IMG/VR virus record: IMGVR_UViG_2778261214_000002
Length of the DNA: 6,874 nt
Strand: one strand, 5' to 3'
Source: a virus
Taxonomy: Duplodnaviria > Heunggongvirae > Uroviricota > Caudoviricetes
Both the position numbers and the translations under genes were made by a program. Position 1 is the stretch's first letter. Each line of letters starts with the position of its first letter. Of the stretch, positions 1-6,874 are shown piece after piece. The notes under the pieces were generated by a model. It searched no databases, was not told the DNA's origin, and saw only the letters and a program-made list of their open reading frames with translations.

Positions 1-651
1 ATGGCGATCGCCGCTGCTGCGCGTGATGGCGAACGATGGCAACGGCTGGCCCTGTGCGTTCACGCCACCACCGGGCATGATGAATAACAGATTACCGCTT
101 TTTACCGTAGTGATTGCGCCCAGCATTTCCGCCATGCGCGTAAGGAAGGACATGTCACTTTCTTCGGTCTGGTCGGCGTGGTCGATTTCGATATCCATCA
201 GCATTTCGCTGATTTGCGGTTTCAGACCGTACCGATGAGCGATGGCGGATACCACACGCTCAACGGTCACATCATGCCAGGACACCTCACGTTTAACGTT
301 AAATTCATCCCGGAAATCTGCGCTTCTGGCTGAAACAGTCAGCCTGTCCGGCGGTCCTTCGTGTGCGATTTCATCAACAATGTAAGACCCTTTTTCTGTC
401 AGCGGTTCGCCTTTCCAGCCAATGAGAACCGTCAGGCGCGCGCCCCGTGGCGGTAGCTGCAACTGACCATCCGCATCATCCAGCGTGATGGTGAGCTGGT
501 CTGCCTCAAATCCCCGGTTGTCGGTCAGCGACAGGCTCATCAGGCGCTCTGCCACGCCGGACAGCGTTTTACCCTCCGCGAGAATATCAAAATCCGGCAT
601 TTTTACGGGGTCTGTGCCCTGGCTGAGCAATTGCATGGTGGTGTCGGTCAT
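1..651 (-). CDS. P2 gpD-like tail protein (late control gene D family), N-terminal 217 codons; 3' end runs off the window
   Basis: Hand translation of the reverse strand from ATG (complement of 649-651) to position 1 is open with no stop: MTDTTMQLLSQGTDPVKMPDFDILAEGKTLSGVAERLMSLSLTDNRGFEADQLTITLDDADGQLQLPPRGARLTVLIGWKG...SADFRDEF...SWHDVTVERVVSAI...ESDMSFLTRMAEML...ITRSSGDRH. Motifs (TDNRGFEADQL, IGWKG, SADFR, SWHD, FLTR, ITRSxGDRH) match my recollection of P2 gpD. SD-like GGGAGGG lies 5-11 nt upstream of the ATG on the - strand (complement of 657-663). Absent from the supplied ORF track because it has no in-window stop. Start could alternatively be the internal ATG at 600. Confidence 0.8.
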   Translation of the reverse strand, partial: MTDTTMQLLSQGTDPVKMPDFDILAEGKTLSGVAERLMSLSLTDNRGFEADQLTITLDDADGQLQLPPRGARLTVLIGWKGEPLTEKGSYIVDEIAHEGPPDRLTVSARSADFRDEFNVKREVSWHDVTVERVVSAIAHRYGLKPQISEMLMDIEIDHADQTEESDMSFLTRMAEMLGAITTVKSGNLLFIMPGGGVNAQGQPLPSFAITRSSGDRH

Positions 652-808
652 CTGCTCCCTCCCTGTGCGGCATGGTCGCATGTGCGTGCGGAGGGGGTTA
701 CTGCTTTTTGTTGTCGCCGGGTCGGGAGAACGGCGCAGGGGTGAGATTACGCGCGTGGTGGGTGATGATTGTTGCCGAATCATTTAACGGATACAAGGGG
801 CTGAAGCT
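652..808. promoter_or_regulatory. Divergent intergenic region between the gpD-like gene (-) and the sheath gene (+); presumed to hold both promoters
   Basis: 157 bp non-coding gap between two divergently oriented start codons. No good sigma70 -35/-10 pair is visible by eye, which fits activator-dependent phage late promoters. Direct repeat TGTGCG at 664-669 and 681-686. Promoter positions not resolved. Confidence 0.35.
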
Positions 809-1993
809 ATGAGTGAAACTCGTTTTCATGGTGCCCGTGTTACGGAAAATACCGACCTGGTAACAGCGATTAACGATGTTGATTCCAGCGTTATCGGTAT
901 CGTGGCAACGGCGGATGATGCGGACGCGGAGCTGTTCCCGCTGAACAAGCCCACACTGCTGACCCGCGTCAATGACGTGCTGGGAAAATGCGGAACAACG
1001 GGGACGCTTTATCGTGCGCTTAAGGCCATCGCAGACCAGGTGAGCACAAAGGTGATCGTCGTTCGCGTGGCTGAACACAAAGAAGAAGACGGAAAGACGC
1101 AGGATCAACTGGTTATCGGTGGTTCTGAGGATGACGGCAGCTATACGGGGATGTATGCGCTGCTTGTTGCAGAGCAGGATGAAAGCATCGGATACCGTCC
1201 GCGTATTCTGGCCGCGCCGGAGCTGGACACGGAGGCGGTAACAAAATCCCTGTGCGTGATTGCGGGTAAACTGCGCGCGTTTGTGTATGCCACATGTCAT
1301 GGTTGTAACACGATGGCTGAGGAGATTACCTACCGCCAGAAATTCAACGAACGTGAGGTGATGCTCTTATGGCCTGACTTCATCGCCTACAACCCGAAAA
1401 GTGGCAAAAACGAAACGTTCCCCGCGCCTGCTTATGCGTGCGGCCTTCGTGCGTACATTGACCATGAGCAGGGCTGGCACAAATCGCTGTCCAACGTTCC
1501 GGTTAAAAATGTGCTGGGAATGTCCAGGCATGTGTTCTGGTCGTTGCAGGCCGAAGACAGTGATGCCAACAGCCTCAATAACAAAGAAATCACGACCATT
1601 ATTCGTCGCAACGGGTTCCGCTTCTGGGGCAACCGCACACCGGAAACGAACGCCTACATCTTTGAGGTGTATACCCGAACCGCACAGGTGCTGGCTGATT
1701 CAATTGCGGAAGCGCAGTTTGAAACCATCGACAGTCCACTGACGCCTGCGAACGTGAAGGATGTTATCAGTGCCATCAGGGCAAAACTGGATTCACTGGT
1801 TACTGCCGGGAAACTGATTGGCGCGGAGTGCTGGTATGACGTGGTGGATAACGGCACCACGGATTTACGTCAGGGGCGTGTGCGTATTCGCTACAAATAT
1901 ACGCCCGTTCCCCCGCTGGAAGACATGGAGCTTTACCAGACGTTTACTGATGAATTCTTTGGTCCCGCATTTGCGGTGCTGGGAGGTGCCTGA
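809..1993 (+). CDS. Contractile tail sheath protein (P2 gpFI-like)
   Basis: 394-aa ORF. N-terminus and internal motifs (FPLNKP, LRAF, YRQ, WPDF, GWHKSLSNV, IRRNGFRFWGNRT, NYTRTAQV, YTPVPPLE) match recalled P2 FI sheath. SD-like AAGGGG 8-9 nt upstream of ATG 809. Stop TGA 1991-1993 overlaps the next start (TGATG). Confidence 0.95.
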   Translation: MSETRFHGARVTENTDLVTAINDVDSSVIGIVATADDADAELFPLNKPTLLTRVNDVLGKCGTTGTLYRALKAIADQVSTKVIVVRVAEHKEEDGKTQDQLVIGGSEDDGSYTGMYALLVAEQDESIGYRPRILAAPELDTEAVTKSLCVIAGKLRAFVYATCHGCNTMAEEITYRQKFNEREVMLLWPDFIAYNPKSGKNETFPAPAYACGLRAYIDHEQGWHKSLSNVPVKNVLGMSRHVFWSLQAEDSDANSLNNKEITTIIRRNGFRFWGNRTPETNAYIFEVYTRTAQVLADSIAEAQFETIDSPLTPANVKDVISAIRAKLDSLVTAGKLIGAECWYDVVDNGTTDLRQGRVRIRYKYTPVPPLEDMELYQTFTDEFFGPAFAVLGGA

Positions 1994-2505
1994 TGGCTGT
2001 ACCAAAACATCTTCGCTTTTTTACGTTGTTTGTGGATGGTGAAAACGAAGTGGGTAAAGTGACATCCGTCACGCCGCCCAAACTGACGCGCAAAACCGAC
2101 AGTTATCGTGGTGGTGGCATGATGGGGGCGGTAAGTATTGATCTCGGTCTGGACGACTCCGCGCTTGATGCGAGCTTTGTCATGGGTGGAGCTGTTCGTG
2201 CACTGTTCCTTAAGTATGGCGGCACGATTGACGGCACGCTGCTGCGTTTTGCGGGTGAATATTACACCGATGCAGAAAGCGATCTGTATGAAATCGAGAT
2301 GCGCGGGCGTGTGACGGAAATTGATATGGGGGAGGCCAAACAGGGCGAAGCCACATCACACACATACGCTGTCAAAAACACCTACTACAAGCTGAGTGTT
2401 AACGATCGCCCGCTGTGGGAAATCGACCTGTTGAACCACATCTACCGGAAGGACGGCAAGGACATTGTGCCTGACCGCATTCGCTCCGCGCTTGGGCTTG
2501 GCTGA
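1993..2505 (+). CDS. Tail tube protein (P2 gpFII-like)
   Basis: 170-aa ORF directly after and 1 nt overlapping the sheath gene (translational coupling). GGGAGG SD at 1981-1986. Sheath-then-tube order and size are typical of P2-like myoviruses. Confidence 0.93.
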   Translation: MAVPKHLRFFTLFVDGENEVGKVTSVTPPKLTRKTDSYRGGGMMGAVSIDLGLDDSALDASFVMGGAVRALFLKYGGTIDGTLLRFAGEYYTDAESDLYEIEMRGRVTEIDMGEAKQGEATSHTYAVKNTYYKLSVNDRPLWEIDLLNHIYRKDGKDIVPDRIRSALGLG

Positions 2506-2560
2506 TAAGTAATATGCAGGCGGCGCAGTGCGTCGCCTCTGACTGAAAAGGAGACAACTG

Positions 2561-2935
2561 ATGAAAGACATCGATACTGAAACCCGGAATAACACCGTAG
2601 CGGATGATGTGACGGCAGGTGAGGATATGGCTGTCGAACGTGGTGTAAAACTTTCCCGGCCAATTGAGCGTGGTGCCGAAAAAATCACATATGTGGAAAT
2701 CACCGGGGCTATTGAGCAGGCGGGATCCCTGCGTGGTCTGTCGCTGTCTGATGTGCTGAATCTGAAAGCGGATACCATGTTCACGCTGTTGCCTCGCGTG
2801 ACTTCGCCACGACTGGATGAAGTGATGATTAAAAAAATGTCGTCACGCGATTTTATTCAGTTGTGCGCTGTGGCTGTAAATTTTATGAGCGAGCCAGACT
2901 CTGGCGCGAAGAGCGTGCAGGAGACGGCAGCGTAA
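2561..2935 (+). CDS. Tail assembly chaperone (P2 gpE-like)
   Basis: 124-aa ORF with strong SD AAAAGGAGA (2546-2554) before ATG 2561. Position between tube and tape measure genes, acidic small protein, and an overlapping -1 frame extension are the hallmarks of the gpE/gpE+E' pair (analogous to lambda G/GT). Confidence 0.85.
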   Translation: MKDIDTETRNNTVADDVTAGEDMAVERGVKLSRPIERGAEKITYVEITGAIEQAGSLRGLSLSDVLNLKADTMFTLLPRVTSPRLDEVMIKKMSSRDFIQLCAVAVNFMSEPDSGAKSVQETAA

Positions 2936-3099
2936 TCACCCTGGTGTGCTTTGAGCACATCGAAGATCTGGTGGCGGATATTGCCGCCATTTTTAACTGG
3001 TCGCCCGCCGAAATCTTCATGATGACGCCCGGCGAAGTGGTTAGCTGGCGTGAGCGGGCGGCACTTCGCAGCGGGAATGCAGATAATGAAGACTCTTGA
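2561..3099 (+). CDS. gpE+E' fusion produced by predicted programmed -1 ribosomal frameshift (shift somewhere in 2833-2935, E' frame continues to TGA 3097-3099)
   Basis: The -1 frame relative to E is open from 2833 (after TAA 2830-2832) to 3099 and has no SD-preceded start of its own (first start-like codon is GTG 2863 with no SD). Candidate slip sites: A AAT TTT at 2878-2884 (X XXY YYZ in E frame) and the A7 run 2831-2837. Fusion would be about 179 aa. Confidence 0.55.
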
Positions 3100-3340
3100 C
3101 ATCCGGGTCGCTTTCAGCGCCGTTGACAGGCTGACCCGGCCTGCCGAAAACGCCCGCCGCCTGATGGGGCAGTTTGGTGACTCCATCCAGCGAACGCAGG
3201 GGGCGATCAAAAATCTCGAGCGTCAGGCGCGTTCATTTGAGCGCGCCCGGGACGCTGTCAGTAAAGCGGATGCGGGTATCGTGAAAGCACGACGCCAGCT
3301 TAACGCCCTTAATCCGTTAGCGCGTAACGCGAGCGCGTGA
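3086..3340 (+). CDS. Tail tape measure protein, N-terminal fragment (frame-shifted relative to the main body)
   Basis: Frame-2 ORF MKTLDIRVAFSAVDRLTRPAENARRLMGQFGDSIQRTQGAIKNLERQ... (85 aa from ATG 3086; alternative starts ATG 3077, GTG 3050), stop TGA 3338-3340. Coiled-coil-like N-terminus typical of tape measure proteins. Overlaps the E' stop. Confidence 0.6.
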   Translation: MKTLDIRVAFSAVDRLTRPAENARRLMGQFGDSIQRTQGAIKNLERQARSFERARDAVSKADAGIVKARRQLNALNPLARNASA

Positions 3341-3440
3341 GCGGTATTCGCGCGCGCAGGAAACAGCGGGAAAACTGAAAACAGGTGGTGCGCTGGCAAT
3401 TGGTGCGGCAGCGGCGGGCGGCTATGCTGCCGGGCGTTTT

Positions 3441-5657
3441 TTGCAGCCTGCGATCGGGTTCGGGAAAGAGATGTCCCGCGTTCAGGCACTGACGCGAATC
3501 GACAAAAACAGCCCGCAGTTTAAGGCGCTGCGTGAGCAGGCGTTAAAACTGGGCTCTGAAACGCAGTTCACCGCAGGCGATGCCGCCAGTGGGCAGGCAT
3601 TTCTTGCAATGGCTGGCTTCACACCGCAGGCCATTCAGGCTGCGCTCCCTGGCGTACTGAGCATGGCAACGGCTGGCGGTATGGACCTCGGTGAGACGGC
3701 GGATATTGGCTCAAATATCCTGACGCAGTTCGGTCTTTCTGCTGACCAGATGGACCGGGTCGGCGACACACTCACCGCAGCGTTTACCCGTACCAACACT
3801 GACCTTCGCGCACTGGGTGAAACCATGAAATATGCAGGTCCGGTGGCGGGTAAGCTGGGAATATCGCTGGAGCAGGCCGCAGCGATGGCGGGCGTGCTGG
3901 CGAATATGGGTATCAGAGGGAGTGATGCCGGGACGGCAATGCGTGCCAGCCTGGCTCGTCTGGCATCACCGCCAAAGGCGGCAGCAGAGGCGCTGAAAGA
4001 GCTTGGCGTGTCTGTCTCGGATGCCGGGGGCAAAATGCGTCCGATGGAGGATGTGCTGGCTGACCTTTATAAAGCTACCCGCAAATACGGGGAAGTTGAC
4101 CGGGTATCGTTCTTTAAGGACATTGCCGGAGAAGAGGCTTTCACATCATTTATGGCCCTCGTTGATGCGGCAGGTGACGGCTCCTTACCCAAACTGAGAA
4201 AAGAACTTGAAGGTGCGCGCGGTGAGGCTGAACGCACGGCAAAGGTTATGGCCAACAACCTTGACGGCGATCTGAAATCACTCAGCAGTGCATGGGAAGG
4301 GTTGCGCATCCGCATTGCAGATCTGATTGACGGTCCGCTGCGTTCTGTCACGCAGTGGCTCACGCGTGTGGTATCAAAGGTGACGGCGCTGGCGCAGGCC
4401 CATCCCGCACTGACGCGCCAGCTACTGATTGCAGGCGGTGCACTGCTGGCAATGACTGCAACGGTTGGCTCGTTGTCGCTGGCTATTGGTGTGCTTGCTG
4501 GCCCGCTGGCAAAACTGCGTCTTGGTTTTTCCCTCCTGACCGGATCAATGAATGCTGTCAGGGTTCTGCCAGCACTATGGGGAATGGTGACGGGTTCCGT
4601 TTCTTTACTGGGAGGCGCTATCGGGGCGTTGTTCAGTCCGGTTGGTCTTATCGTGGCTGCGCTTGCCGGAGCTGCCGTTCTTATCTGGAAATACTGGGAT
4701 CCCATCAGGGCATTTTTTGCCGGGGTGTTCAGCGGGATTATGGAAAGGCTGACCCCGTTGCGCGAAACCTTTGAACGGTTTGGTCCTGTTTTTGACGCAA
4801 TCGGGAGTGGGATCAGCCAGGTGTTTAACTGGTTTAAATCGCTGCTGTCACCGATGGAGTCCAGCAAGGAAACTCTGGATAAATGTACCAGTGCTGGCGA
4901 GATATTCGGTAACGTTCTTGGCGGTGCGTTACAACTTGTTCTGACACCTGCAAAAATGTTGCTGGATACGCTGGCGTGGATACTTGAAAAGCTTGGTGTG
5001 CTTCCGGATGAAGCGGAAAGGGCGCGCAAGAAAATCGAAGACGCACAGCGTGCGGCCATTCTTCAGGACAAGGTTGCCTTGCTTCAGGGGGACCTGGCGA
5101 AAATCAATCCGCCGAAGCCTGTGGAAAATGGCAATGGCACCGGAGGTGATAACCCCAAAGACAATAAACCGCTCACAGACAGCAATACCGGTACGCTGCG
5201 CAGACTCAGCAAAATTGCTGATAACACAGGTAAGCTGGTTGAGGAGACGAAAAAACGCATTGGCCCCGGCGATATTGTCTTTAAAAACCTGCCCCGAGCA
5301 CTTGCTGTTCGTGGGGAGTGGCAGGAGCGGAAGATTGCGCAGGTCAGTAAGCCTGCCCCCGCAATTAATATCACACCCGTGGTCCCGGCTCCGCTGCCTC
5401 CGGCGCTGGTCCCTGTTGTTGCGGCCAGCTCCCGCCCGGTGGCGGAGGCTATACGATCTCCAGTGGCATCAGTTCCTGTAACTTCCCGTAACCGGGAGCC
5501 TGTTGCCTCCGGATTTGGTGGTGAAATTCATGTTCATCTGCATAACGTTGTTACGCAGAATCCCCGCGAACTGGCGAAACTGGTCGGTGAAATGGTCAGG
5601 GCAGAAATGGAACGGCGCGCCCGTGCCGGGCGTGGCAGTTTTTACGATAAAGATTGA
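3441..5657 (+). CDS. Tail tape measure protein, main body (P2 gpT-like); frame is open from 3321
   Basis: Frame-0 reading is open from 3321 (after TAG 3318-3320) to TGA 5655-5657. First in-frame start-like codons are TTG 3441 and ATG 3471. Ala/Gly-rich alpha-helical protein with a central hydrophobic stretch (LLIAGGALLAMTATVGSLSLAIGVLAGPLA...) and a Pro/Val-rich C-terminus, located between gpE and gpU: characteristic tape measure. Confidence 0.9.
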   Translation: MQPAIGFGKEMSRVQALTRIDKNSPQFKALREQALKLGSETQFTAGDAASGQAFLAMAGFTPQAIQAALPGVLSMATAGGMDLGETADIGSNILTQFGLSADQMDRVGDTLTAAFTRTNTDLRALGETMKYAGPVAGKLGISLEQAAAMAGVLANMGIRGSDAGTAMRASLARLASPPKAAAEALKELGVSVSDAGGKMRPMEDVLADLYKATRKYGEVDRVSFFKDIAGEEAFTSFMALVDAAGDGSLPKLRKELEGARGEAERTAKVMANNLDGDLKSLSSAWEGLRIRIADLIDGPLRSVTQWLTRVVSKVTALAQAHPALTRQLLIAGGALLAMTATVGSLSLAIGVLAGPLAKLRLGFSLLTGSMNAVRVLPALWGMVTGSVSLLGGAIGALFSPVGLIVAALAGAAVLIWKYWDPIRAFFAGVFSGIMERLTPLRETFERFGPVFDAIGSGISQVFNWFKSLLSPMESSKETLDKCTSAGEIFGNVLGGALQLVLTPAKMLLDTLAWILEKLGVLPDEAERARKKIEDAQRAAILQDKVALLQGDLAKINPPKPVENGNGTGGDNPKDNKPLTDSNTGTLRRLSKIADNTGKLVEETKKRIGPGDIVFKNLPRALAVRGEWQERKIAQVSKPAPAINITPVVPAPLPPALVPVVAASSRPVAEAIRSPVASVPVTSRNREPVASGFGGEIHVHLHNVVTQNPRELAKLVGEMVRAEMERRARAGRGSFYDKD

Positions 5658-5663
5658 GGAGTC

Positions 5664-6158
5664 ATGGCCATGATGATGATCTACGGCATGTTTGTTTTTG
5701 AGCTGCGCACGCTGCCGCATCAGCAGTTACAGCAAAACAAAAGCTGGCGGCATGTGAAAAATGAACGCGTTAACCGTTCAGCAAGCTGGCAGTATATCGG
5801 TGCAGGTGATGATCGCATCGTTCTTTCTGGTGTGCTTTATCCTGAAATTACAGGTGGCGAAGTGTCGCTGTCGCTGCTGACCACGCAGGCGTATACAGGA
5901 CGACCCTGGCCTTTGATTGATGGCGTCGGGCAGATTTACGGCATGTATGTGCTGACTGAAACGAATACGACCCGTTCCGAGTTTGATCGCTACGGTAAGG
6001 CGAAAAAGATAGAATTTTCACTGACTCTTGAACGCTGTGATGAGGATTTGCGGGAGCGCCTGCAATCCTCATCGTTCAGTGATATGCTGTCCGGCTTCAA
6101 AGATAAGGTCACATCATCCCTTAACAGCGCGGCCAGCTCCGTTAAAGGGCTGTTTTGA
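5664..6158 (+). CDS. Tail protein (P2 gpU-like)
   Basis: 164-aa ORF. N-terminus MMMIYGMFVFELRTLP... resembles recalled P2 gpU (MMMVLGLFVF...). GAGGAG SD at 5656-5661 overlaps the tape measure stop; true start may be ATG 5670 (8-nt spacer) rather than 5664. Confidence 0.88.
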   Translation: MAMMMIYGMFVFELRTLPHQQLQQNKSWRHVKNERVNRSASWQYIGAGDDRIVLSGVLYPEITGGEVSLSLLTTQAYTGRPWPLIDGVGQIYGMYVLTETNTTRSEFDRYGKAKKIEFSLTLERCDEDLRERLQSSSFSDMLSGFKDKVTSSLNSAASSVKGLF

Positions 6159-6165
6159 TTAACGC

Positions 6166-6202
6166 AAAACCGCTAATGGTCAGATTAGCGGTTTTTTATT
6201 TT
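6166..6202. terminator. Intrinsic (rho-independent) terminator between convergent gpU and invertase genes
   Basis: Perfect 12-bp inverted repeat AAAACCGCTAAT (6166-6177) / ATTAGCGGTTTT (6184-6195) with 6-nt loop, followed by TTATTTT on the + strand. On the - strand the stem is followed by a weaker U tract. Sits 8 nt after the gpU stop and directly abuts the invertase stop (6196-6198). Confidence 0.75.
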
Positions 6203-6786
6203 CCCTGAGTCTGCCCGGTTGTTTCTTCAGCCTGTATATCGCCTACAGGGTGATAACGATAAATCGTCGATATACCGATGTCGTAAATGATCGCCAGTTG
6301 TTTCCTGTCATGGCCGTTTTTAATCAGCCTTTCTATTTGCTCATGTTGTTCTTTTGTCAACTTCGGGCGACGTCCGCCAATGCGTCCCTGTGCTCGTGCT
6401 GCTGCCAGCCCGGCCAGTGTACGCTCTACAATTAATTCACGTTCCATTTCTGCTAAAGCTCCCATGACGTGAAAAAAGAAACGCCCCATGGGTGTTGATG
6501 TGTCAATGCTGTCCGTCAGGCTACGGAAATTAACACCTTTTTCCCGCAATTCCTCAATAAGCGTGATCAGGTGTTTCATACTCCTGCCCAGCCTGTCCAG
6601 CTTCCAGACAACCAGCGTATCTCCTTCTGATAGCGTTCTGAGCAGTTTTTTCAATCCCGGTCTGGCTGATTTCGTTCCGCTGATTTTATCTTCAAAAATC
6701 AGTTCACATCCTGCGCACTCCAGCGCGTTACGCTGCAATTCCGTGTTCTGGTCATTTGTTGATACGCGAACATAACCAATAAGCAT
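6196..6786 (-). CDS. Site-specific DNA invertase, serine recombinase (Hin/Gin/Cin/Pin family)
   Basis: Reverse-strand ORF MLIGYVRVSTNDQNT...LVVWKLDRLGRSMKHL...GVNFRSLTDSIDTSTPMGRFFFHVMGALAEMERELIVERT...GRIGGRRPKLT... is near-identical in motif content to recalled Gin/Pin/Cin/Hin invertases (catalytic Ser in YVRVSTNDQ, C-terminal HTH). Start chosen at ATG 6786 (SD AGGGGG 6 nt upstream on the - strand); the ORF track extends to ATG 6792. Confidence 0.95.
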   Translation of the reverse strand: MLIGYVRVSTNDQNTELQRNALECAGCELIFEDKISGTKSARPGLKKLLRTLSEGDTLVVWKLDRLGRSMKHLITLIEELREKGVNFRSLTDSIDTSTPMGRFFFHVMGALAEMERELIVERTLAGLAAARAQGRIGGRRPKLTKEQHEQIERLIKNGHDRKQLAIIYDIGISTIYRYHPVGDIQAEETTGQTQGK

Positions 6787-6841
6787 GAGCATCCCCCTGA
6801 ATAAAAACCGGAGATGATGCCAGTTACCCGTTATCTCTGCA

Positions 6842-6867
6842 TTTTCACAAACGTTGGTTTGGGAGAA
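6842..6867. other. Candidate invertase crossover site (hix/gix/cix/pix-like 26-bp imperfect dyad with 2-bp core)
   Basis: TTTTCACAAACG-TT-GGTTTGGGAGAA. The reverse complement of the right half (TTCTCCCAAACC) matches the left half at 9 of 12 positions. Half-sites fit the recalled family pattern TTnTCnnAAACC with a 2-bp central core. Lies about 55 bp upstream of the invertase start, at the window edge. Confidence 0.55.
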
Positions 6868-6874
6868 GCCAGAT

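Follow-up and report, generated by a model that had tools for sequence, protein, structure and literature searches.

Tail operon carried by the contig

The window, that is, the whole stretch of DNA analysed here, is the complete 6874-nt contig LPXZ01000173.1 from the fragmented E. coli short-read draft assembly GCA_001571835.1. As judged from its sequence, it covers part of the tail operon in an E. coli prophage of the P88-like group (Xuanwuvirus, Peduoviridae; P2-type). Megablast of the positions 2900–5700 yielded 97–99% nucleotide identity to the phages P88, 503458 and P884B11. The gene order, with D on the minus strand followed by sheath, tube, E/E', tape measure, U and an invertase on the minus strand, is the same as in these P88-like type phages over the 6.9 kb that the contig spans.

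At the left end, the gene for gpD (minus strand) is truncated by the contig start, and its match to PF05954 was weak and below the curated cut-off. The tail sheath (809–1993, plus strand) and tail tube (1993–2505, plus strand) genes are intact, with lengths as in their relatives. Directly upstream of the tape measure gene lies the gene for a gpE-type tail assembly chaperone (2561–2935, plus strand), for which PF10109 likewise gave a weak match below the curated cut-off. Its E' extension (2833–3099, plus strand; PF06528) is read in the −1 frame and overlaps the end of gpE as well as the start of the tape measure gene. Directly downstream of the tape measure gene, the gene for the tail protein gpU (5664–6158, plus strand; PF06995) is intact, and it is followed by a serine DNA invertase gene on the minus strand (6196–6792). 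With E/E' upstream and gpU downstream, the gene in between occupies the tape measure position.

Differences from the closest relatives are located mostly in the region 1–1600, comprising gpD and the sheath, which points to a mosaic ancestry. The exact sequence of the 394-aa sheath (809–1993) is rare and was found on four contigs only, all of them at most 6874 nt long; the exact tube, gpE and gpU sequences each occur on hundreds to more than 1000 contigs, and the 196-aa invertase sequence is widespread as well (605 blocks). Within the gpE gene, the heptamer A_AAT_TTT at 2878–2884 is kept in both divergent alleles across the 16 loci compared below (GTAAATTTTATG vs GTAAATTTTTTG) and is a candidate slippery site for a P2-type programmed −1 frameshift yielding E/E+E'. 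We take the E/E' frameshift, located upstream of the break in the tape measure gene, to be the known programmed frameshift of this operon. In public records, E' is given as a separate 51-aa ORF starting from GTG 2944.

Just past the invertase start, CACAAACGTTGGTTTGGGAGAA at 6846–6869 resembles the crossover sites of the Gin/Pin type. In the closest relative, L011 (CP056936.1), this element is present at 8313–8334 and, inverted and with three mismatches, about 1.6 kb away at 9920–9941, so that the two sites bracket tail-fibre/assembly genes. The window contig ends 5 nt beyond its crossover-like site, and it was probably the invertible segment that interrupted the assembly. In a related prophage (L017), a SopE-type guanine-exchange effector gene (8758–9480; PF05364/PF07487) is located in the invertible tail-fibre region beside the invertase, as in Salmonella SopE-phi.

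The tape measure gene and its missing segment

The tape measure gene is split between two reading frames. The frame of ATG 3086 encodes 84 residues and stops at TGA 3338–3340, and the +1 frame, after TAG 3318–3320, is open from 3321 up to the stop codon at 5655–5657; the frame break reported in the initial annotation was thereby reproduced. Instead of an uninterrupted ORF of orthologue length, the locus contains the 84-aa piece and a 778-codon open frame. The N-terminal remnant (3086–3340, plus strand) comprises 78 homologous codons, identical to residues 1–76 and 78 of the 935-aa orthologues and carrying P in place of Q at residue 77 (Q77P), followed by six out-of-frame codons (ARNASA) and the TGA. 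The remainder of the tape measure (3321–5657, plus strand) matches residues 158–935 of the intact protein right from codon 3321 and shows no further disruption. Its product (3321–5654) scored 293.3 bits against TIGR01760 (cut-off 28.8) and 199.4 bits against PF10145 (cut-off 33.2), placing it above the curated cut-offs of the TP901 family. Together, both pieces align to a single 935-aa orthologue, in agreement with the earlier suggestion that the two ORFs once formed one gene.

The earliest canonical start codons of the +1 frame, TTG 3441 and ATG 3471, correspond to Leu and Met residues inside the intact protein, and no promoter-like site was found in 2900–3700. On these grounds we rejected a separate expression of the downstream ORF, which had already been described as lacking a convincing start of its own. 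NCBI, whose annotation of the contig contains no protein between 3099 and 5670, appears to treat the locus as a pseudogene; this fits exact protein look-ups of the fragment products (84, 87, 96, 728 and 738 aa), which gave no record. A terminator-like hairpin with a T-run (GGCGGCTATGCTGCC GGGCGTTTTT) is located at 3417–3440 within the tape measure coding sequence. This hairpin is probably fortuitous; two terminator-like sites were found, with 0.9 expected by chance.

To size the lesion, we used 16 intact orthologues, derived from six phages and from ten E. coli loci retrieved via the invertase. All 16 contain an ungapped tape measure gene of 2808 nt encoding 935 aa, among them those of the phages 503458, P88, Shae_phiSM, PhiR44_2, Chuche and 500465-2. 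That about 236 nt are missing from the window was first indicated by 13 phage records, which align to the window region 2900–5700 (a 2801-nt query) in two pieces spanning 3036–3037 nt. The multiple alignment with the six phage genes contains one gap, present in the window only, at columns 235–470. Ungapped placement of the window against the 16 intact genes gave the same picture, with columns 235–470 absent. Likewise, blastn against L011 yielded gap-free pieces for 1–3319 and 3320–6868, and the 236 nt of L011 between them are absent from the window. The deletion junction is located at 3319/3320, within the segment 3315–3332 (plus strand), where the 236 nt of gene columns 235–470 are gone, and 2572 nt of tape measure sequence are retained. 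This loss removes residues 79–157 and shifts the frame: as 236 equals 3 × 78 + 2, translation from ATG 3086 goes out of frame at the junction and reaches a stop codon after six more codons. Deletion, position and frame effects can be read directly from these alignments, as can the absence of the deletion in the relatives. Elsewhere, the 6.9-kb window aligns collinearly and without gaps, with 98.7–99.7% identity to complete prophages.

Aligning the gene to intact tape measures, as proposed at the outset, thus located the lesion but did not bear out its presumed size of 1 nt. A single indel inside 3321–3340 had been expected; the actual lesion is a 236-nt deletion at 3319/3320 accompanied by three adjacent substitutions. 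Similarly, the fused product of about 850 aa, taken earlier as the size of a P2-type tape measure, turned out to be a coincidence of arithmetic, as repair of the frame alone would yield an 857-aa protein without 78 residues, compared to 935 aa for the native protein. P88, which has the 935-aa gene, is an inducible and infectious coliphage (PMC5285337), identifying 935 aa as the functional form.

The occurrence of the junction was assessed with a 201-nt probe against complete E. coli genomes, 1374 of which carry the region. No genome among the 1374 reached 99% identity to the probe, for which a carrier of the junction would give 100% in one piece; the best 25 of the 1374 are all two-piece matches spanning 436–437 nt with 98.0% identity. 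Searches for the exact junction in GTDB species genomes, IMG/VR and JGI metagenomes gave no match either. Based on these searches, the deletion is private to the source of the window. It also appears to be recent, since the 778 codons are still open and the other genes of the window are full-length and gap-free with respect to their relatives.

Origin of the lesion

Three substitutions are located beside the junction, 3315 A>C (Q77P), 3323 T>C and 3332 G>A, all within 13 nt of it and all private to the window. Compared with the 16 intact genes, the window has five private bases in 2572 nt, three of which are these, and no other difference from the closest relatives, L011 and L012, was found in 1580–3718, a stretch of about 2.1 kb. 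If private substitutions were evenly spread, three of five would fall within 26 nt by chance with a probability of roughly 1e-5 (simple arithmetic), and this clustering ties the three substitutions to the deletion event, or to whatever made the join. At the deletion endpoints we detected no flanking direct repeat or microhomology, no inverted repeat and no significant hairpin, and the local DNA fold at the junction is no better than that of shuffled sequences (z = −0.38). Self-similarity rises with each of the substitutions: 3315 A>C lengthens a CGTTA...TAACG inverted repeat, and the changes at 3323 and 3332 create GCGCGT and GAGCG copies of a motif just downstream.

The initial annotation had left the choice between a real inactivating mutation and a sequencing or assembly indel. 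The 236-nt gap removes a 1-nt error from this choice, leaving either a genuine deletion or an assembly fault of larger size. We consider it likely that a recent, private and complex deletion knocked out the tape measure gene of this P88-like prophage, and we infer a biological origin of the deletion and a loss of function.

Further evidence on this point is provided by the sister assemblies, one of which is GCA_001571505.1. The identical 6874-nt contig is reported for two samples, which may not correspond to two independent isolates. A sister contig found in four samples (L008) is identical to window positions 1–3310 and ends 4–5 nt short of the first junction-specific base, and a SKESA contig (L009) corresponds to 23–3099, bounded exactly by the sites 22 and 3100, which are variable among the relatives. 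These breaks suggest either two near-identical P88-like prophage copies or a mixed population, and, in either case, the broken tape measure gene may exist alongside an intact one. The break of L008 at 3310 points to a forked assembly graph at this position, as would be expected if reads with the junction compete with another path. Since the 16 intact relatives are identical at 3305–3322 except for site 3315, a fork at about 3311–3315 needs a junction-like variant in the sister reads. A k of 61 counted from the polymorphic site 3250 was considered as the cause of the break at 3310 and discarded, as the left contig end lent it no support, position 61 being invariant.

An assembly artefact, in which the gene or genes are intact and the assembler misjoined nodes across two near-identical prophages to create a false 236-nt deletion together with wrong bases, appears unlikely to us. 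Such a misjoin would be compatible with the 6.9-kb window being one entire contig of a fragmented draft made from short reads, and with contigs from at least four sister samples that end at 3310, right beside the suspect join. The limits of the SKESA contig at the polymorphic positions 22 and 3100 signal forks from a second copy and make chimeric contigs possible, the junction is unmatched among the 1374 E. coli genomes and the three large collections, and it is precisely at the join that the three odd substitutions occur. However, a misjoin with three specific substitutions and no sequence common to both ends is hard to produce, the same contig was obtained in two samples, and the fork in the sister assemblies itself needs a variant such as the junction in the reads. 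Graph assemblers output only k-mers that are present in the reads. A literature search for papers on the assembly accessions found none.

For a real deletion, a single complex internal event would have removed codons 79–157 of 935 at 3319/3320 and left three base changes nearby. It is a speculative and rather improbable proposal that the deletion and the three substitutions arose together in one member of a pair of near-identical prophages residing in the same strain, for example by template switching or error-prone break repair, or, in a related version, that a former in-frame 857-aa 'short-tail' form was turned off when a GT was lost.

We regard it as very unlikely that the lesion arose in two separate steps, the first being an in-frame loss of codons 79–156 (234 nt) leading to an 857-aa and possibly functional protein, and the second the loss of GT from CGTGTAAC (2 nt, 3325/3326). 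Window positions 3320–3325 (GCGCGT) do equal the gene columns 469–474 exactly, which renders the gap codon-aligned (columns 235–468), and adding the GT loss at columns 475–476 and two substitutions amounts to four events in total, the same as for the 236-nt alignment. This route nevertheless requires two rare independent events 6 nt apart, and the 234-nt in-frame deletion was seen neither in the 16 loci nor among the E. coli matches listed; from sequence alone, it is indistinguishable from a single complex event.

Finally, we give practically no credence to a sequencing error of 1 nt, to a programmed +1 frameshift or to a natural arrangement as two genes, as the only feature in their favour, two ORFs overlapping in a GCG-rich stretch, faces a 236-nt difference from the orthologues and one 935-aa ORF in 16/16 loci. 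The sequencing error is excluded by the gap of 236 nt, far from a single-base indel. Intact orthologues sharing the two-ORF structure, which would have argued against a broken gene, were looked for; the layout occurs in none of the 16 orthologous loci and in none of the best 25 of the 1374 E. coli genomes. Read directly, the overlap 3321–3340 (CGC GTA ACG CGA GCG CGT GA) contains no X_XXY_YYZ heptamer and no CUU_UGA-type +1 site, and no Shine-Dalgarno-like stimulator lies upstream of it. A programmed frameshift at 3321–3340 was accordingly dismissed for want of a conserved two-ORF arrangement and of a shift motif, confirming what had been stated initially.

Consequences and comparison with known systems

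With a recent complex deletion as the preferred reading, no full-length tape measure would be made from the damaged copy, because the upstream frame stops after 84 codons and no separate start exists for the downstream part, and the prophage would not build a tail alone. For this prophage copy, tails would be impossible unless another prophage supplies a tape measure. The locus holds a dead prophage gene of an ordinary kind or, with lower probability, reflects a fault of the draft assembly. It is correctly labelled as a pseudogene of the tape measure that results from the loss of 236 nt, and neither as a 1-nt frameshift error nor as two genes; beyond annotation, the case is of little importance. 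For frame breaks in draft contigs, a comparison with intact orthologues should establish the size of the lesion before it is put down to a point indel, and contig breakpoints in sister assemblies can flag multi-copy prophages.

The closest counterparts are the tape measures of P88 (YP_009113088.1) and of the other Xuanwuvirus phages 503458, 520873 and P884B11, with 97–99% identity over the retained 2572 nt. Like the gene in the window, they are located between gpE/E' and gpU and contain the TIGR01760/PF10145 domain. The phage genes are single 935-aa ORFs, whereas the window gene lacks 236 nt, encoding residues 79–157, and is out of frame.

The gpT protein of P2, encoded in the FETUD operon, occupies the same slot in the same order of FI sheath, FII tube, E/E+E', T and U, and the flanking genes in the window match P2_GpE and P2_GpU. 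With about 815 aa, P2 gpT is shorter. It is not a direct ortholog of the window gene. P88-type genomes also differ from P2 in that D is located upstream on the other strand, and that an invertase and invertible fibre genes follow U.

Engineered in-frame deletions in lambda gpH reportedly shorten the tail, with about 1.5 Angstrom per residue (Katsura and Hendrix). The likeness to the window lies in an internal deletion within the helical part of the tape measure. The lambda gpH deletions are in frame, whereas the window deletion is out of frame, so that no shortened full-length protein is expected from it. Had the window deletion been in frame, the loss of 78 residues would correspond to a tail shorter by about 12 nm.

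Disabled tail genes also occur in deposited 'phage' records of the P88-like group, as seen from the phage 503458 record (L001, 508–2266), in which an insertion of IS100 (IS21-family) interrupts the sheath gene. As in the decay pseudogenes of enterobacterial prophages, a single lesion disables an essential structural gene of the window while the module is otherwise intact; compared to these, the three substitutions clustered at the junction are the only unusual detail.
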